Shown: positions 43,483-51,465 of the stretch, in pieces
Numbering within the stretch: position 1 is the stretch's first letter
How the letters are laid out: each line of letters begins with the position of its first letter
From: Spizellomyces punctatus DAOM BR117
Lineage: Eukaryota
DNA: 64,000 nucleotides
Assembly: GCA_000182565.2 (NCBI GenBank)
Contig: KQ257465.1
Strand: one strand, 5' to 3'
Position numbers and translations under genes: made by a program
The notes under the pieces: model-generated
The model's input: only the letters and a program-made list of their open reading frames with translations
Database searches by the model: none
Told to the model about the DNA's origin: nothing

Positions 43483-43544
43483 TACTTGTTGGAAGGAGCA
43501 TCCGAGAAGATCGCTTGAGTTACTAAATCTCGTATTCCCGTCGT

Positions 43545-43873
43545 CTATATGAGCAGGCAGAGATATGGCGCGAGTTTGACCAGCATTATGGAAACTGATA
43601 CAGAGAGAGAGAGAGCACTTTCTGATGCACCAAAAGAACGCCTCTTCAGGGGTTCTAGGATGTGGGGAAACCTCGCTGCATCCTCTATACATGGAACCAA
43701 TTCCATGTATACTGGCGCCCCAGCATACCAGCCAGCACAAGCCTAGCGGGCACCGCGGACCGAGCTTGACACGTTATGCACATGCATAAGGTGCGCCCAC
43801 TCCAACAGCAATGGTCTCTCTCTCCCTGTGTGAGTATCGGATCCAGGGATACTGAAGCAAACCCCCGCCTTAC
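43545..43873 (-). repeat. Structured intron family, copy B (329 nt)
   Basis: Starts GTAAGGCGGGGGTTTG, ends CATATAG; internal hairpins shared with the other copies. Confidence 0.85.
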
Positions 43874-43952
43874 CGGTCAACTCAACAGCGAGGAACGATG
43901 GCGACAAGAGAAAGTGGGCGACGCGCGGTGGGTAAAGAGATTTGAGGTATGA

Positions 43953-44322
43953 CTACATGCAGAGAAACAGCGTGAGTTTGACCAGTATTACGTATACTGA
44001 CACAGAGCGAGAGAGAGAGCATTCTCTGGTGCACCAAAAGAACGCCTTATCAGGGGCTCTAGGAAGTGGGGAACACCGCGCTGCAACCTCTATTGGATGG
44101 AATTGGTTCCATGCAATACTTTGGTACCTCCAGAATACCGGCCAGCACAATGCTAGCGGGCAGCCGCCGACTGAGCACGAACAGGGCAATCTGGAACTGC
44201 CGAGTTCGCTTGACACGTTATGCATATGCATAAGGCGCGCCCAAAATCAAACAGCAATGGTCTCTCTCTCTCTGTGTGTGTTTGTATCGGATCCAAGCAT
44301 ACTGAAGCAAACCCCGCCTTAC
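43953..44322 (-). repeat. Structured intron family, copy C (370 nt)
   Basis: GTAAGGCGGGGTTTG...CAAACTCACGC...CATGTAG. Confidence 0.85.
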
Positions 44323-44381
44323 CGGTCAACTCATACAGCGAAGGGACGATGGCGCGGTAGGTAAAGAGATTTGAGGTATGA

Positions 44382-44743
44382 CTACATGCAGAAAAAAACA
44401 GCGTGAGTTTGACCAGTATCAATGCGCACGGTGAGAGAGAGAGAGCACATCTCTTGAATTACAGAAGAACCGCCTTTTCAGGGGGCCTAGGATGTGGGGA
44501 GGTTCACCGCGAGTGCATCCTGTATCCACGGAACGAATTCCATGGATACTCTGCGACCAGAGAACACCGGCCAGCATAGGCTAGCGAGCGCTGGGGACTA
44601 AGCACATTGCCGGGCAATATGAAACTGCCGAGGTTCGCTTGACGCGTTATGCATAGGCATAAGGCTCGCTTGACCTTCAGGTAATGGTCTCTCTCTCTCT
44701 GCGTGTACCAGATCCAAGAACACTAGAGCAAACTCCGCCTTAC
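44382..44743 (-). repeat. Structured intron family, copy D (362 nt), near-identical to copy E
   Basis: GTAAGGCGGAGTTTG...CAAACTCACGC...CATGTAG. Confidence 0.85.
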
Positions 44744-44817
44744 CTTAATCGTGCAGCGATGTGACGATGGCCAGGAAATCGGAAAGAGATGCTGGAGGGG
44801 AAAAAGCAAGAGACGCG

Positions 44818-45215
44818 CTTTTATAACCCACGCGCGCAAGGGGTAGAAGTTCGGACACGTGAGACTCTGCTCCGTCCGATGACACCCAACACTTGTTTTT
44901 GCATATACTCGGCTGTGATAAATATATTCCAAATTGACAATCCAGAAATGAATGGACTGCATGGCAGCAGAGAGGAATCAACCAAAACACCCACTGGACA
45001 ATGTGCAGAGAAGCTCTGCTCACTGCGAATGATGCCAAAAAACACAACACACAACGTCCACTAGACAAATGTGCAGAGAAGCTCTGCTCAAAAGTCGAAT
45101 GGTGCCAAATAAATGCAACACACTACACCCGCTCGATAATTTGCAGAGAAACTCTGCTTATAGTCGAATGATGCCGATACCGCAGGCTGGACCATGTGCA
45201 GAGAAACTCTGCTCC
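44818..45215. promoter_or_regulatory. Putative divergent promoter: minus-strand TATAAAAG plus four GCAGAG-AAR-CTCTGC palindromic repeats
   Basis: TATA at 44818-44825 (minus); palindromes at 45005, 45073, 45143 and 45198 in units of about 55-70 bp; homologous block at 49610-49830. Confidence 0.5.
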
Positions 45216-45482
45216 CAGTTCAGCGCAATTTGACCACGTTCATGTTTGCGAATGATGCTGAAGAAGTGTGCACACGAATATTGTAAACAAAGTAGAATCA
45301 GTTTGACAGCAAGCCATATGCATGTCCAACCACATCTCCGCTATCAAACCCCCTCGGATGTTCTCAAGCCCCTTGGGCTTGGGATGGATGATGATCGCCG
45401 ATATAGCACCCCGTAAATCTACCAACTATTTAGGCTTCCGTCTGGCTGAGAGGAACTCTCAACCATTGCAGTAATAGCAGTA

Positions 45483-46475
45483 ATGAATTTCCACCTATTC
45501 TACGAGGAAGACGGCTGTGAAAATGGTTTTGTTTGCCGCTCCGACGGCAACATTTTAGTAGCCACAAACGACAACGAAATAACAATTACCCTGGGAGAAG
45601 AAAAGCCTCCTAACCTAGGCCCCTCATCCAGCATTCATGATTTGGTCGCAGAGAAACTCTGCGACCAACCAACCAAAAGAACTGCCAAGGAGATTGAAGA
45701 GGATCTTGACGCCAGGAGGAGAGAACTGACCATCGCTCGCGAACAGCGTGATTTTGGGAACGCAAAATTCCTTCACTTCGAAAAAATCCCGCAGTTGCAA
45801 GAGGAACTCTTGCAAGTTCTTGGGACGAATAGGACGGAAGATCGCAGAGAACCCTCTGCGCCAGTCCTTTCAGCCGAGGAGGACTTTATTGCCCTGCCCA
45901 GCGACGATGAAGAAGTAAATTTCTCGTGCGCAAAAAAGGCGAAACGTTACTGGGCTGTGCCCGCGAAGAAAGCCAGAGTGGAGAAAATGAGCGTCGACAA
46001 CGAGGATCTTAGGATCCAGCTCTCGTCAGCAGGGACCAGCTCACAGCATGCTCTCGAGGCGGTTCAGCAAAGAAAGCCGAGAAAGGGAACCCGGGACCGT
46101 TACCACTGTAAAGTCGATCTGTACATCAACGGCAAACTGTGGAAACGCGATTGTGTTTTTGTGATCGTTACCAAGCAGGGCTCAGAAAGATCCACGGTCT
46201 CTGTTCAATACGATCTGTCTGAAGAGCTTCCTCTTCAAACAACACGGCCCAGATACATCATTTACCATGACAGGACGTATATATCGTTCGACGATACCCG
46301 TCCTCCCCACGCAATCACCTTCAGCAGTGCTACCGGGTTCTTTGACTGGTACCACAATGAAGATTTTCGCGGCTTTGCATTCCAGTACGCGGGCAACATC
46401 AATGAGATACTCATTGCTGACGTGGAAGGCAAAGATTCGTTGGCAATAATGTATGAGGCCCTACACCGGCTGTGA
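45483..46475 (+). CDS. Intronless 330-aa island partner protein (coiled coil, basic NLS-like patch, beta-rich C-terminal domain)
   Basis: Intact ORF with a diverged, scrambled paralog at 49982-50880. Segment ELTIAREQRDFGNAKFLHFEKIPQLQEEL resembles a ClpB/Hsp104 M-domain or UVR-type helix; basic patch KKAKR...KKAR. Confidence 0.8.
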   Translation: MNFHLFYEEDGCENGFVCRSDGNILVATNDNEITITLGEEKPPNLGPSSSIHDLVAEKLCDQPTKRTAKEIEEDLDARRRELTIAREQRDFGNAKFLHFEKIPQLQEELLQVLGTNRTEDRREPSAPVLSAEEDFIALPSDDEEVNFSCAKKAKRYWAVPAKKARVEKMSVDNEDLRIQLSSAGTSSQHALEAVQQRKPRKGTRDRYHCKVDLYINGKLWKRDCVFVIVTKQGSERSTVSVQYDLSEELPLQTTRPRYIIYHDRTYISFDDTRPPHAITFSSATGFFDWYHNEDFRGFAFQYAGNINEILIADVEGKDSLAIMYEALHRL

Positions 46476-46729
46476 TCGGAGAGTATCTCTCCGTGGAAGC
46501 AGATGGCAGGCAAGTAACGATCATATGCAACATCAATGAGTTCCTCATTGTGATGCAACAGACTAGGTGATATACCTCGGTTGACTTGCAAGAAATATGC
46601 TCTCAGTGCAAAAGAATGATTGCAAGAAGATAGGATATGTAATGTAAAATAAAACAACAATCTTTTGCGACACCGTCTCTTGAGTTTACAAAGCACGCTA
46701 TTCGGAAGAGAATCTCTTCCGGACAGGAG

Positions 46730-49468
46730 CTAACGGACCTTCTTCTTTGGTGTAGCACCAGCGAGCGGTGCTGACGCGCGAGACCAGGTTTTAGGTCGAT
46801 CTGTGCTGTTCTTCACCAGAGGTCGCGGCTTTACGCCATGAGCACCGCCTCTGGACCAAATGCTGGCCCTTCGCTGCTTCTTGCCGAATGTAGATACAAG
46901 ACGGCGTGCAGCTGTTTGTAAATCTGCCTGTAAGGATGCAGCATTTCCGGCGAGGGCCTACAGACTATGCATAAGCCACGCTGTTGCAGCAAGCACAGAA
47001 ATCGCCAACAGTACCTCAAAGAGCAAAAAGTTCTCAGCCATGTCCAAGATGGAGAGGATCTCTCCATTCATGCCTGCAGAATCAACCGCGGCCCACTCTG
47101 CAAATGCGTAGAGCTCATCGCATACAACGAACATGCAGAAAAAGCGAACGGTGTAGTCTCGGATAACGTGGAATGGTACAGCAATCTGAGCAAATCCGTG
47201 TTTGAGCTCCTTGGACGGCGCGATGTTCTGTGCTTCCAGATGCACACACGTCTTCTTGACCAAGGATCGAATTTGTGCTATTGCACACTATCGAAAGTTC
47301 AAATGTCAGAGATAACTATTTAGGCTTCCATTTGGCTGAGAGGAACTCTCAACCATTGCAGTAATAGCAGTGATGAACTTCGACAGATGCCCCAAAGAGA
47401 TTCTCTTTGGGGTGTCCGACATTGAATAATGAAAGTAAAACTTGATAGTACCTTGGTCGCCGCAATGAAGTCTCCATCACGTTTGTCACGGGAAGATTTG
47501 TAGCCGAAATTCTCACCCACCCCAATTTCATCAGTACCCAGAAAGTAGTCGAAATCAACCTTCTTTCCGCCGCTGGTAGTGGATTGTCGTCTTTTCTTGT
47601 CCTCGTCATCGGCGCGCGAACATCCTTCACCACTGGCGAGAGCAGGTGAGCACAGTCAGTATCGATGATATGTCAATTGCGGTGTCATTACTTACTAACG
47701 TACTCCTGCGTTCGGCAATTTGGCAAAAGGGACAACATAGTAGATGTCAATGGTCCTCTCCGTGGGGTTCTGTGGACAGTTCGCAATGTCGGCGCTGAGG
47801 TAGCAGCAGGGTTAATGGCATCAAAGGTGAGAGAAGCTCTCACTGAAACTGAGATACCATTCAACCAATTTTCTGCAGATCCAGATAGTCATCTCGTCGT
47901 CCTTATCCATCTGCCTGGCGTCATTTTCCAACTTGCTCCAAATCTCACGAGTTTCATTGCACTCTTCAGCGGCAGAATCCTCCGATGTTTGAGATGTATG
48001 GTCTTCGTCGTCTTCAGAGAGTATCCTCTCTGTGAGGTTCCGAAGAGACCGCTTCAGTAAGTCAATGAGACCTGCAGTACCATGGACCATTATGGTTCTC
48101 GCGAGAACAGAGACATCTCTGTTCAGCTCATGACATTCCAGGAGTGTTCGCATCACTGACAACAGCGCCACAGCTGAGGAACTCAGCTTTGCACTAGCGC
48201 GATTCATGATCCGCTCGAATTGACTCACAAGCTGCTGGTGGGTGGTGTAGTCGACAAATTCCGTAGCTCTTTCATTATCATCCAAAGGGTAATCGGGGTC
48301 ATGATCTCGTAAGTCCAGCGCTGACCAGAAGAGAGTACTTACAACTTAAGATTAGACAATGAAGTAATCTTAGGGAAACAGTTTGCAAGTACCTTGTTGC
48401 TTTATGCTCCTTTCGAAAGTTGATCATTGCCGATATCGCCTTCTCAAAAACTGTATTCATCTGCGTTGTAGGTAGTGGGGGTGGTACTTCCACTTCATCA
48501 CGACAAGTGCCCGAGGCGTCCAATCGCAGTGGTCCATGAAGAGCGTTCTCTTCATGTTCGTCCCCCAACTTCCTCTTCAGAAAAGTACCGGACGCGTTCA
48601 AACGCAGTGTTTCATGAAGAGCGTTCTCTTCATGCTCTTTCTCCAACTCTATCTTCTGATATGTACCCAAGGCGTCCATACGCAGTGGTTCATGAAGAGA
48701 GTTCTCTTCGCGTTCTTCGTCGAAGGTCCTCTGCGGATGCGCATGGGCGATATGGACATGTTCATTTGAGCCGCTGACGTTGTTGATGAATTTACCGCGA
48801 CTATGTATGCGATAAGTGGTCATGTCGCGTTTTTTAAGCGTCCGCTGAAGGGACTTATCTAGAGATCTGCAGTATGCCTGCGTGCAGAGAAACAGCGTGA
48901 GTTTGACCAGTATCAATGCGCACGGTGAGAGAGAGAGAGCACATCTCTTAGATGACAGAAGAACCGCCTTTTCAGGGGGCCTAGGATGTGGGGAGGTTCA
49001 CCGCGAGTGCATCCTGTATCCACGGAACGAATTCCATGGATACTCTGCGATCAGAGAACACCGGCCAGCACAAGGCTAGCGAGCGCTGGGGACGAAGCGC
49101 ATTGCCGGGCAATATGAAACTGCCGGGGTTAGCTTGACGCGTTATGCATGGGCATAAGGCGCGCTTGGTCTACAGATAATGGTCTCTCTCTCTCTGTGCG
49201 TGTATCAGATCCAAGAACACTAGAGCAAACCCCGCCTTACCGGATCAATAATCAGTCGTGCAGCTCTCTCTCGTAAATCTTTGGGAAGAGAATCCTCTTC
49301 CGCGAAGTTCTTGAGTATCTCAAGGACGTCAGAGACAGTTGTTCGGTTCGTAGGAGGAAGTGGGCAATCCAGGAAGAGCGCTTGCACAACAGATTTTGCA
49401 CTCCAGTCGCGTAAGTCGTTAGCGTGAAAGTATTCTTTCAAAAATTCCCGTTGAATTGCGCGGGACAT
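46730..49468 (-). CDS. 7-exon, 657-aa putative PD-(D/E)xK (CR-REase-like) nuclease
   Basis: Exons 49468-49241, 48877-48393, 48337-47858, 47794-47696, 47632-47452, 47287-47015 and 46957-46730 splice in phase through GT-AG introns with no internal stop. Motifs ALDL, TERTIDIYYVVPF, YGEGCSRAD, GKKVDF...EIGVGE...DKRDGD and a C-terminal TPKKKVR. Confidence 0.8.
48500..48725 (-). repeat. Three tandem 78-bp (26-aa) coding repeats in nuclease exon 2
   Basis: EExEENxLHxxLRxxAxGT unit three times; each carries a GAAGAG-N4-CTCTTC palindrome (48535, 48613, 48691). Confidence 0.9.
48878..49240 (-). repeat. Structured intron family, copy E (363 nt), the first coding-region intron of the nuclease gene
   Basis: Removal joins IIDP to AYCRS in phase 0, which supports the repeat being a spliced intron. 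Confidence 0.9.
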
Positions 49469-49488
49469 GGGCTAACGGAGATATGTGA

Positions 49489-49576
49489 CTACACGCAGAG
49501 ATAGAGCGTGAGTTTGACCAGCATTTGGCAGAGAGAGATTCTCTCTCTGTGTGTGTGTAGGAAAACCCTGCCTTAC
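49489..49576 (-). repeat. Structured intron family, short copy F (88 nt) in the nuclease 5' UTR
   Basis: Same GTAAGGC start and CAAACTCACGC...GTAG end; the ~270-nt middle is replaced by a 3-nt loop in CAGAGAGAG-AAT-CTCTCTCTG. Confidence 0.8.
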
Positions 49577-49981
49577 CTCCACTACATGCAGCGAAGCGAC
49601 GATGGTGGAGGTTATGACCTACGCGCGTAAGGGGTAAGTTCGGACACGTGAGACTCCGCTCCGTCCGATGACACCCCAACACATGTTTTGCATAACCAAG
49701 TTGACAATCTAGATATAAATGCAGAGTTTCTCTGCATATGGTCCAGCTTGCGGTATTGGCATCATTCAACTGTGAGCAGAGCTTCTCTGCGCATTGTCCA
49801 GCGGGTGGGTGTTGTGTGTAGCATTTATTTGCCGTCATTGGACTGTACAGTACAGTACAACTATATCGACTATTTCATCGGACAGATAACGGGAACATAG
49901 CAGAAACACTTGTCCGATCAAAAACTCGATACTGGTTGTAATGGGGAGTACCCCGCTGATGTAACACCCCGTAACTCTACT

Positions 49982-50880
49982 AACTATTTAGGCTTCCATC
50001 TGGTGAGAGGAACTCTCAACCATTGCAGTAAATTTTCATCTCTATTTCGAGAATGAAGGCGTTGTTCTCCCAGCGTGATTGTTACTTCGGTGTCCGTTGT
50101 CGCCACTAAAATGTTGCCGTCTGTGCGGCACACGAATCCGTACAGCCTCGCAACCAAGGCCCTGTACACCGAGTATCGTCGATTTGATCGGAGAGAAACT
50201 CTCGGAAGAAGAATGCCCGCAAGGAAAGCAAACCAAAAGAACTGCAGCGGACATCGAATAGGATCTTCACGCATCATACTGAATAGAGACCGTCGATCTC
50301 TCTGAGCCCTTCTTGGTAACTATCACAAAAACAGAAGCATGTTTCCAGATTTACATGATTGACAACGAATCTTTGCCTTCCACGTCAGCAATGAGTATCT
50401 CATTGATGTCGCCGGGGTACTCCAAGGCAAAGCCGCGAAAATCTACGTTATGATACCAATCTACTGAATGTGATGGCGTGCGGAGGACGGGTATCGTCGA
50501 ACGATATATACGTCCTGTCAGCGTAGGCCCGGTTCAATAATGTATGAGGCGCTACACCGGCTGTGATTGGAGAGTATCTCTCCATGGATTGCAGGCAAGT
50601 AAAGATCATATGCAACATCAATGAGTTCCTCATTGCTGATGCAACAGACTAGGTGGCACGGATATACATCGGTTGACTTGCAAAAAATGTGCTCTCAGTG
50701 AAGTTCCCGAAGTTACGGATCTATTTTGCCGACTTCCCTTAGCTACATTGTTCTATAAATTAGAGGCTGTTCACCTTGGAGACCTGCTGCGGTTATGAGT
50801 ACGACTAGGTGTGAAGATAGGATAGTGAAATGTAAAATAAAGCAATAATCTTCTACACCGGTTCTTGAGTTTCCAAGGCA
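49982..50880 (+). pseudogene. Scrambled pseudogene of the 330-aa partner gene
   Basis: Leader is direct (49982-50030), N-terminal GFVCRTDGNILVAT is inverted (about 50040-50140), EKL...TKRTA is direct (about 50190-50265), C-terminal pieces are inverted (about 50290-50520), and MYEALHRL* plus 3' flank are direct (from 50537). Confidence 0.85.
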
Positions 50881-50914
50881 TGCTATTCGGGAGAGAATCT
50901 CTTCCCGACAGGAT

Positions 50915-51377
50915 CTAACGGACCTTGTTCTTTGGTGTAGCACCTCGCTGCATCCTCTAAACATGGAACCAATTGCAACATACTTTGGCACCCCAGCATA
51001 TCGGCCAGCACAAGGATCGCGGGCACACGAAGAGGGCAATTGGAAACTGCCGAGGTCGCTTGAGGCGTTGTGCAGATGCACAAGGTGCGCCCACTCCAAC
51101 AGCAATGGTCTCCTACAATCTATGTGTGTATCAGATAAGGACACTGAAGCAAACCCCGCCTTACTTCACAAACAGCCAGTCCCGCAGCTTTCTGTCGCCG
51201 CTCTATTGAAAGAGAGGTCGCTTTCTCATGGTCCTTGAGCACCTCAAGGATTTCTGGGACACTGTAGATCTTGAGAGGACCCTCCGATAACATCACTTTA
51301 GCTACAGTTCTCATATCCCAGGCGTCTAAATGAGCAGTACAAAAGTAGTCTTTTAGAAAGCTGTTAAGGGATGACAT
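50915..51377 (-). pseudogene. Internally deleted nuclease paralog (exon 1, half of intron copy G, and the last few codons)
   Basis: MSSLNSFLKDYF...W..R.VA..L is paralogous to MSRAIQREFLKEYF...W..K.VV..L. Intron G starts at 51164 and is fused at an ACC microhomology (50942-50944) to ...ATPKNKVR*. Confidence 0.8.
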
Positions 51378-51465
51378 GCGAACAGGACAACGATGGAGAG
51401 GAGAGAAAGGGCAAGACGCATAAAATATATTCCAAATTGACAGCCTAGAAATGAATCAACTATAA

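Follow-up and report, generated by a model that had tools for sequence, protein, structure and literature searches.

Short palindromes sharing a GAG/CTC tip are confined, within a 64-kb window, to a duplicated two-gene cassette of the chytrid Spizellomyces punctatus

Analysis of a single 64-kb window of Spizellomyces punctatus DAOM BR117 DNA (contig KQ257465.1), the whole stretch on which our evidence is based, revealed an island crowded with short perfect palindromes that have one tip in common, GAG to the left of a 3- or 4-nt loop and CTC to its right. By its repeat structure, the island is a cassette that has been duplicated in tandem and consists of two convergent genes, here called A and B, both of them orphans; the neighboring copies have decayed. 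Within the window the motif is confined to this cassette, where it occurs independently of coding and codon usage; its stem is kept paired through position 6 and then falls off, and paralogous copies conserve it above their flanks. As a possible account that we favor tentatively, the palindromes may constitute a hairpin code specified by the tip, made by fold-back copying and read at the level of DNA.

An inverted-repeat search of the window for hairpins with a stem of at least 6 bp and a loop of 3–4 nt returned 70, of which 33 carry the GAG...CTC tip. These 33 palindromes (stems of 6–12 bp, loops of 3–4 nt, no strand assigned) occupy 45005–51250. All start between 45005 and 51232, and none is found in the other ~57.6 kb of the window, taking 44900–51300 as the island for inside and outside counts. 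The starts are 45005, 45073, 45143, 45198, 45447, 45642, 45795, 45843, 46220, 46400, 46477, 46534, 46703, 47049, 47337, 47390, 47827, 48015, 48105, 48172, 48535, 48613, 48694, 49284, 49310, 49529, 49719, 49776, 50004, 50389, 50568, 50619 and 51232. An earlier note on this DNA had claimed more than 25 such inverted repeats between 45005 and 50910, extending into both coding sequences (CDSs), and few elsewhere. Our count agrees, and all 15 examples it quoted are present where it placed them; its span is right for 32 sites but ends too soon, as the site at 51232 lies just past it. Three further GAG-N3/4-CTC sites in the island have stems shorter than 6 bp, two of which (near 50191 and 50873) are decayed copies in psiA, a degenerate copy of gene A. 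Inside the island, 25 of the 27 occurrences of GAG-N3-CTC sit on a perfect stem of 6–12 bp and eight of the nine occurrences of GAG-N4-CTC on stems of 6–9 bp; outside it, all 9 and all 14 occurrences, respectively, have stems of 3–4 bp. The inside-out core showed no enrichment (CTC-N3-GAG occurs 3 times inside versus 14 times outside, and CTC-N4-GAG never inside versus 9 times outside).

Comparison with shuffled sequence, together with the count by core inside and outside that the earlier note had proposed, showed a strong excess in the island. In 300 dinucleotide-preserving shuffles, GAG-tip hairpins averaged 0.063 (maximum 2) versus 33 observed, and hairpins with any tip averaged 3.4 (maximum 8) versus 42 observed. 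Because just nine island hairpins bear another tip, a slight enrichment over the any-tip shuffle mean, and two of these are offsets of one GA run, the excess is specific to the GAG/CTC tip. The five palindromes in CDS A and the nine in CDS B compare with means of 0.064 and 0.092 (maximum 2 in each case) in 1000 synonymous-codon shuffles that kept protein and codon usage, and with means of 0.012 and 0.017 when codons were permuted freely; the adjoining chitin-synthase open reading frame (ORF; 1010 codons) contains no GAG-tip palindrome. When we grouped the sites by paralogy, the 33 reduced to ~20 independent sites falling into 14 classes of arm and loop length, in keeping with the earlier argument that differing arms speak against simple duplication. 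The palindromes are not the product of coding, codon usage or simple duplication. That the pattern arose by chance, or from base composition, codon usage, GA microsatellites or duplication alone, is a reading that could draw on the 13 of 33 sites that are paralogous copies of others and on the two sites (48015 and 49529) built on GA runs, but given 33 sites where shuffles give 0.063, 14 in CDSs where fewer than 0.1 per CDS are expected, an empty 57.6 kb and ~20 independent sites, it is almost certainly not the explanation.

The anatomy of the motif, counted over all 36 island GAG-N3/4-CTC sites of any stem length, is W-GAG-(NWN or N4)-CTC-W carried by a stem of six or more Watson-Crick pairs whose remaining sequence is free. 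Stem position 4 is paired in 35 of the 36 sites, and its left base is A (26) or T (7) in every one of the 33 whose stem reaches 6 bp. Of the 36 sites, 34 are paired at position 5 and 35 at position 6, by pairs of all four types, whereas controls in which the partner was slid by one position gave 4–12 paired of 36. Pairing runs through position 6 in 33 sites, with stems shorter than 6 bp in only 3, and falls beyond it to 25, 20, 20 and 13 of 36 at positions 7, 8, 9 and 10. Such a sharp end at 6 bp would be expected of a minimum functional stem, but not of copying tracts of random length. The possibility that the stems are remnants of longer palindromes was considered and rejected, the first mismatch past the stem being of transition type in 11 of 34 cases, which is the 4-in-12 chance rate. 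Among sites with a stem of at least 6 bp, 25 have a 3-nt loop and 8, from 6 of the ~20 independent sites, a 4-nt loop. The center of the triloop is A (18) or T (7) in all 25, as the earlier note had seen in its own list, versus 5 of 9 for GAG-N3-CTC outside the island. No G.T wobble occurs at positions 4–6 in the parts predicted to be transcribed, all 66 cells being Watson-Crick. At positions 7–9 of the palindromes in 45440–49640, a small sample of 11 transition-type mismatches divides into 9 that would form G.T on the antisense (template) strand of the gene in which they lie and 2 on its sense strand. Predicted folding as single-stranded DNA gave the structures as drawn for 10 examples (−3.8 to −13.7 kcal/mol).

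The sites are spread over every part of the cassette, as assigned with the gene models predicted in this analysis. Six, with identical arms, lie in two upstream repeats, and one in a 5′ module of gene A; CDS A holds 5 and CDS B 9, three lie in the 255 nt between the stop codons of A and B, and a further 3 are in the introns of B, 1 in its leader, 4 in psiA and 1 in exon 1 of B′, a partial paralog of B, giving a density of ~1 site per 190 nt. One of the post-stop sites begins 2 nt past the stop of A and another 8 nt past that of B, and the GCAGAG site of the upstream repeats recurs within CDS A. At 10 of the 14 CDS sites GAG is in frame as Glu, and in encoded peptides such as LVAEKLCDQ, LQEELLQ, INEILIA, LEILK and NGEILSI each codon is paired with its reverse complement. 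At the CDS sites it is the DNA symmetry that shapes the protein sequence, and not vice versa. B intron 1 (363 nt) contains no GAG-tip palindrome, nor does an array of intron-like units to the left of the cassette (43534–44745). Intron 1 was homogenised recently, because a stretch of it (48890–49070) is 98% identical to a copy in that array (44396–44576; repeat family D3).

Repeat analysis, three-frame reading, exon mapping and BLAST of the parts against each other gave the layout of the cassette, a tandem repeat with a period of ~4.5 kb (direct repeats ~4494 nt apart) whose unit holds both genes. The intact copy consists of an upstream repeat, gene A, the convergent gene B and a second, inverted upstream repeat. 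The left upstream repeat (44985–45260, plus strand) comprises four units of ~55–70 nt, with boundaries drawn by eye, each made of GCAGAG-AAR-CTCTGC followed by a GAATGRTGCC box, and is located between a leftward B-type first exon and gene A. The right one (49700–49850, minus strand), found by repeat analysis upstream of gene B, is an inverted copy with two units; the inverted pair, I2, joins 45126–45212 with 49721–49807 (87 nt, 87% complementary). A conserved AT-rich element with TATA-like words, AAATATATTCCAAATTGACA... and variants of it, was read by eye at 44917–44957, 49690–49720 and 51408–51450, where it separates each B-type first exon from the upstream repeat or A-type module next to it, and is probably the core of a bidirectional promoter. 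Beyond the intact copy, psiA (49954–50944, plus strand), recognized by translation and BLAST of the parts, is a decayed, scrambled copy of gene A with an in-frame stop; the region between its inverted blocks is deleted, and it bears four perfect and three decayed palindromes. B′ (51165–51377, minus strand) is a paralog of B exon 1, with 32% identity over 66 amino acids by three-frame reading and exon alignment, and exon 1 is joined there to an intron of the same kind as B intron 1 (50980–51165).

This layout bears on whether the island is a mobile element, as the earlier note's terms "island" and "element-encoded" implied. A DNA transposon or a nest of miniature inverted-repeat transposable elements, in which the palindromes would be subterminal transposase-binding repeats, collapsed pairs of terminal inverted repeats (TIRs) or excision footprints, could be read into the inverted 87-nt repeats that flank a 4.5-kb unit with several copies of one palindrome, as well as into the local duplications and rearrangements. 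However, Pfam searches (E ≤ 0.1 to 1) of A, B and 20 further ORFs in 43.1–51.2 kb matched no family, and so no transposase, recombinase, Rep or reverse transcriptase domain, and no tyrosine recombinase or HUH transposase gene was present among the larger ORFs of the window or the ORFs of the island. The direct-repeat spacing fits tandem duplication of a gene cassette, the 87-nt repeats look to be upstream modules of the duplicated cassettes, shared as promoter modules by two convergent genes, and not transposon ends, and the arms of the other sites are mutually unrelated and thus not copies of one TIR. We consider a mobile-element origin highly improbable, and that part of the earlier claim did not stand. 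P-nucleotide footprints of hairpin-forming transposases were also rejected, since they would lack the asymmetric 3–4-nt spacer.

The six identical-arm upstream copies, in repeat units typical of upstream activating sequences, and the return of the GCAGAG site in CDS A would suit ordinary duplex operators, in which a dimeric transcription factor reads WGAG-N3-CTCW and the outer arms are neutral by-products of fold-back. The 11-bp tip is itself an interrupted, symmetric palindrome whose dyad falls on an A:T pair. Yet a reader of duplex DNA has no reason to make the free positions 5 and 6 complementary in 34–35 of 36 sites, by-product arms should decay smoothly and not stop sharply at 6 bp, and 8 of the 33 sites have a 4-nt spacer, a mixture of spacers that a rigid dimer would not tolerate. 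Such operators are therefore a very unlikely explanation. Sites of the HSF, STAT or Gal4 type were rejected as well, as they leave the complementary free positions unexplained. Recognition sites of enzymes with the restriction-endonuclease (PD-(D/E)xK) fold, which have a fixed spacer and need no outer symmetry, differ in the same respects, as the spacers here are of two lengths (3 nt at 25 sites, 4 nt at the other 8) and positions 5–6 are complementary.

Neither gene offers an evident reader of the palindromes. Gene A (45483–46475, plus strand), an orphan identified by its ORF and by homology search, is a single exon encoding 330 amino acids (P0001). Its sole homologue among 1.84 billion representatives, a partial one, is a 127-amino-acid hypothetical protein (P0002) of Spizellomyces sp. 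'palustris' (46% identity over 120 amino acids), a match to P0003 being a low-complexity chance match. Gene B (46730–49468, minus strand) encodes 657 amino acids in seven exons (49468–49241, 48877–48393, 48337–47858, 47794–47696, 47632–47452, 47287–47015 and 46957–46730) separated by six spliceosomal introns; its spliced translation equals P0004 and is identical to SPPG_07619 of S. punctatus DAOM BR117, and no sequence homologue was found among the same representatives. Neither A nor B matched a Pfam family, and PADLOC, NCBIfam and PDB sequence searches gave nothing usable. Basic stretches resembling nuclear localization signals were read by eye in both proteins, KKAKRYWAVPAKKARVEK in A (~residues 151–168) and PKKKVR at the C-terminus of B (46730–46760).

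Structural searches provided a lead for B only. The Atlas yielded no usable structural match for A. Its model of B (pLDDT 0.62) has neighbors among Mucoromycota hypothetical proteins (TM up to 0.78 by row). Further neighbors, in the region of ~residues 190–600, are a bacterial cluster named 'Type I restriction endonuclease subunit R', in which 19% of members have HSDR_N (TM by row 0.69 over 199 residues), and clusters in which a minority of members have DUF7924, Crinkler or fungal-kinase domains. Every one of these neighbors carries a flag that places it below the level needed to name a family. A wide VIA-align search with a poor model of B gave generic helical matches (Z ≤ 7.1) to low-confidence helices and was uninformative on the fold. 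We treat a restriction-endonuclease-like B as a lead suggested by these models.

Repeats also occur within gene B. In exon 2, 48502–48735 consists of three tandem 78-nt repeats (26-amino-acid units, 77–79% identical to the first), each with a CATGAAGAG-NGTT-CTCTTC palindrome translated as HEEN(A/S)LH. Intron 5 (47314–47429) carries a plus-strand copy of the gene A 5′ module, 93% identical to 45424–45494, followed by an 18-codon ORF, MNFDRCPKEILFGVSDIE and a stop, whose first three residues are shared with A and which holds the 10-bp palindrome at 47390 in frame.

Comparison of paralogous parts indicated how the palindromes change. Over seven paralogous blocks and one module copy, identity was 156/178 at palindrome positions and 711/919 in flanks (Fisher p 0.0017). 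Stems have changed while staying paired: CGGAGAG/CTCTCCG at 46477 corresponds to TGGAGAG/CTCTCCA at 50568, a compensatory double change, and stem position 5 of the palindrome at 45642 is C-G in gene A and G-C in the psiA copy. In B′, the palindrome at 51232 stands at the site homologous to 49310 and has been kept although the exon-1 paralogs are just 32% identical as proteins.

The 12-bp palindrome at 45642 is, by these comparisons, derived, through rewriting of the fold-back type. At this site psiA has DLIGEKLSEEEC... and the S. palustris homologue protein has DVIGEECRREEE, whereas ~18 nt have been lost from gene A, in which the right arm exactly reverses and complements the 12 nt on the left, a clustered change of arm to complement with an indel such as template-switch products show. 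This is the one clear rewriting; in addition, three blocks of psiA are inverted in place (A coordinates 45525–45602, 46135–46236 and 46263–46453), with the first strand switch falling on the TGAAGAG arm of palindrome 46220. A pattern of inversions like that of psiA is typical of serial template switching, and the upstream repeats are likewise mutually inverted between cassette copies (I2). A short copy of the intron-like unit reads CAGAGAGAG-ATT-CTCTCTCTG where the long copies hold ~250 nt between (GA)n and (TC)n. We regard the rewriting at 45642, the psiA inversions and the short intron-like copy as signatures of fold-back or template switching. Template switching between short inverted repeats is reported to make their arms uniform (PMC8604942), and short inverted repeats are reported to grow longer through fold-back synthesis at breaks (PMC11724301).

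The same traces could mean that the palindromes are functionless repair scars, left where a tip-specific nuclease or nickase, with B as a candidate if it is restriction-endonuclease-like, repeatedly cuts in or near GAG/CTC and fold-back repair writes a palindrome. The rewriting with its ~18-nt loss at 45642, the in-place inversions of psiA with a strand switch on a palindrome, the fold-back inversions of 2–150 bp that arise at induced breaks in yeast (PMC11724301) and the Atlas neighbors of B, as a lead, are all consistent with this. Tracts of random length should, however, yield many stems of 4–5 bp, and just 3 of 36 sites are under 6 bp. In addition, palindromes are conserved above and not below their flanks, indels between paralogs do not cluster at palindromes (7/21 versus 26.6% expected, p 0.31), a 3–4-bp recognition word is far commoner in the island than 36 sites, and B has no sequence match to nuclease families in Pfam, PDB, PADLOC or NCBIfam. 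The survival of just 4 perfect sites of 7 in psiA and the chance-level share of transitions just past the stems likewise speak against simple break repair. Taken with these points, scars without function seem rather improbable.

We propose instead, tentatively, that the palindromes are hairpin-type sites set by shape and a fixed tip, 5′-W-GAG-(NWN or N4)-CTC-W-3′, on at least six Watson-Crick pairs. They would form a cis code spread over one locus, the duplicated cassette of genes A and B, which would be co-regulated, and a single trans factor would recognize the tip of a hairpin or cruciform transiently extruded on DNA. The six identical-arm upstream copies, lying between divergent promoters, would serve as a shared operator, and ~18 further sites with unrelated arms would span leaders, exons, introns and the inter-stop space. 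Short fold-back (template-switch) synthesis, by copying one arm from its partner, would both give rise to new sites and keep the old ones perfect. Generic template switching would be expected to leave any tip; with one tip here, a tip-specific hairpin site is the simplest account. We infer reading of the tip by a trans factor, and DNA rather than RNA as the level of reading, as we do the operator role of the upstream copies and any role of proteins A or B. The DNA level is favored because identical copies lie between divergent first exons, sites occur in introns and in the pseudogene, and wobble is absent.

Alternatively, the same tip-specified code may be read on RNA, with one hairpin-tip-specific RNA-binding protein controlling the decay, storage, localization or packaging of A and B mRNAs through about a dozen GAG-NWN-CUC triloop or tetraloop hairpins per transcript, which would act as multivalent binding sites. 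Since a DNA palindrome is identical on both strands, convergent genes would obtain the same RNA element. By the gene models, some 27 of the 33 sites fall within A- or B-type genes (predicted leaders, exons, introns or 3′ regions) or within decayed copies of them, a site directly follows the stop codon of each gene, and the recently homogenised B intron 1 and the left intron-like array have no sites. The closest known class, the constitutive decay element (CDE) bound by Roquin, is alike in geometry, its relaxed consensus having a stem of 6–8 bp, a triloop, a free stem, disfavored G.U and weaker 5-bp forms (PMC6294493), and it is recognized by shape (PMC11730611). In contrast, six operator-like copies with identical arms lie between divergent first exons, upstream of promoter-like elements read by eye, and three sites are intronic. 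Of the transition-type mismatches at the edge of the stem (positions 7–9), 9 would be wobble pairs if the antisense strand folded and just 2 if the sense strand did, and 14 sites are inside CDSs, where ribosomes would unwind hairpins. We hold reading on RNA to be a serious but doubtful possibility. The histone stem-loop was rejected as a model, as it has the opposite polarity (CTCT-loop-AGAG).

Several considerations weigh against our proposal of a code read on DNA, in addition to the large share of sites in predicted transcripts. With arms of this length, extrusion of stable cruciforms from duplex DNA would not be expected, and to our knowledge recognition of hairpins by sequence plus shape in eukaryotes is nearly always on RNA. 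The 6-bp examples are weak as predicted single-stranded DNA hairpins (−3.8 to −5.1 kcal/mol, against up to −13.7 for the longest). Neither A nor B has a recognizable DNA-binding or other Pfam domain, and their single-sequence AlphaFold models were too poor for use (pLDDT 34.2 for A and 36.3 for B). The untranscribed status of the upstream repeats rests on promoter elements read by eye, and the comparison covers this one genome's window. The conservation test draws on non-independent sites of one locus and is graded as moderate evidence; psiA retains just 4 of 7 sites perfect, and indels between paralogs do not cluster at palindromes. The absence of wobble is also compatible with RNA, as the relaxed Roquin CDE likewise has a 6–8-bp stem, a triloop and no G.U (PMC6294493).

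A further reading, which we think unlikely, combines writing and reading in a selfish two-gene unit with its own structural mark: a protein of the unit, B being the candidate if it has a restriction-endonuclease fold, would recognize the hairpin tip and nick there, and fold-back repair would renew or spread the palindromes. The locus would thereby carry a self-renewing code that distinguishes it from all other parts of the genome and that could serve autoregulation, protection or copy-number change, for instance. In an RNA version, one protein would coat or package both mRNAs by way of ~12 hairpins each, in the manner of single-stranded RNA viruses. Should B prove to be a nuclease, both this reading and that of repair scars would gain. 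The earlier note had offered a binding or self-mark code, single-strand hairpin signals or repair scars; the common ground of these, a tip-specific nucleic-acid structure, is supported, and independent traces of template switching are seen; any of the three may hold. Whatever probability these readings leave over belongs to a cause that we have not thought of.

Comparison with known systems revealed partial likenesses. CDEs, and more loosely the Smaug/Vts1 elements, resemble the cassette sites in having a triloop, a minimum stem of ~6 bp, a free stem and little G.U, and several copies of such elements can act jointly (PMC6294493, PMC5603727, PMC11730611). The CDE geometry of a triloop on a free stem of at least 6 bp with no G.U is found at the 25 triloop sites, the 8 others having tetraloops. 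The first CDE consensus had Y-R pairs and a YRY or YRN loop, whereas the cassette tip, GAG/CUC, has its purines on the 5′ side and encloses a loop of the form NWN. CDEs lie in the 3′ untranslated region, one or two per mRNA; the cassette sites, at their density of ~1 per 190 nt, extend over promoter-side repeats, exons and introns, and just 3 of the 33 lie between the stop codons. Smaug elements do occur within ORFs, and Roquin is, as far as we know, an animal protein. Products of template switching and quasi-palindromes are similar in being short perfect inverted repeats with minimal spacers, one arm rewritten, accompanied by in-place inversion and found within CDSs (PMC8604942, PMC10710096, PMC11724301). 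The process as known, however, has no sequence preference, whereas 33 of the 42 island hairpins share a tip and a 6-bp minimum.

Integron attC sites, the subterminal hairpins of IS200/IS605, repetitive extragenic palindromic (REP) sequences and phage N4 promoters are recognized as folded single strands and combine a short conserved sequence with variable stems, the N4 hairpin promoters having a 5–7-bp stem and a 3-nt loop. These systems are prokaryotic and have a recombinase, transposase or polymerase nearby, whereas the cassette is nuclear and eukaryotic, with intron-bearing genes and no such gene found. Inverted repeats within coding genes are known as the PstI palindromes of Neurospora mitochondria, the GC clusters of yeast mitochondria and the Rickettsia palindromic elements. 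Nematomorpha mitochondria also have coding palindromes, with perfect repeats of up to 284 bp (PMC6649704). Like these organellar and Rickettsia elements, the cassette shows in-frame inverted repeats tolerated in protein genes; those elements, however, are copies of one mobile element or long perfect repeats, whereas the cassette arms are 6–12 bp, unrelated, nuclear and at one locus. The packaging signals of MS2 and satellite tobacco necrosis virus are many degenerate stem-loops that share a small motif genome-wide, coding regions included. In contrast to those of single-stranded RNA viruses, the cassette has no viral features that we found, B has spliceosomal introns, and a Pfam search of A and B detected no capsid-like domain. 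The feature therefore lacks at least one defining trait of each known system to which we likened it. A search of literature full text, supplementary files aside, gave no match for GAGNNNCTC, GAGN3CTC or AGAGNNNCTCT, and the single match for GAGNNNNCTC was a bacterial MerR operator; nothing was found there on palindromic sequences or inverted repeats of this kind in Spizellomyces, nor on the locus tags.

The remainder of the window is nuclear chytrid DNA filled with ordinary eukaryotic genes, including a chitin synthase gene next to the island (51466–55088, minus strand) identified by domain search. The array at 43534–44745 (minus strand) consists of three tandem intron-like units, assigned through repeat families D1–D6, D9 and D13, and is the remnant of a further cassette copy. 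The intron-like unit (~400–450 nt) occurs in five long copies, the three of the array and those at 48878–49240 and 50980–51165, and one short copy in the B leader (49472–49590). Its minus-strand sequence extends from GTAAGG to a pyrimidine run plus CAG, and in gene B it is annotated as intron 1. It carries a conserved hairpin of its own, TTATGC-N4-GCATAA, the source of the 'TGC' tip class. By analogy, the unit may be compared with introner-like elements and with the proliferating symmetrical introns of Hypoxylaceae (PMC8469720). An Rfam search of 42–53 kb gave just two sub-threshold chance matches, and two pattern scans of metagenomes, one for the upstream-repeat unit and one for the 5′ module, returned no match.

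In sum, the pattern implies a reader or writer of sequence plus shape acting on one locus; in the literature we found no such system described from the nuclear genome of a eukaryote. As a rule, short perfect inverted repeats are taken for template-switch noise or for isolated protein-binding sites; ~20 independent sites within 6 kb that have a tip and a 6-bp minimum stem in common, but nothing else, differ from both, and in two genes they override codon choice. S. punctatus is a harmless soil chytrid for which genetic transformation has been reported, and in the cassette one could follow, in a natural setting, how fold-back template switching gives rise to functional elements and alters proteins. 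Were the code read on RNA, it would represent CDE-type regulation in a fungus, at a density without precedent; were it read on DNA, hairpin-specified sites, known so far from bacteria and phages, would have a eukaryotic example.

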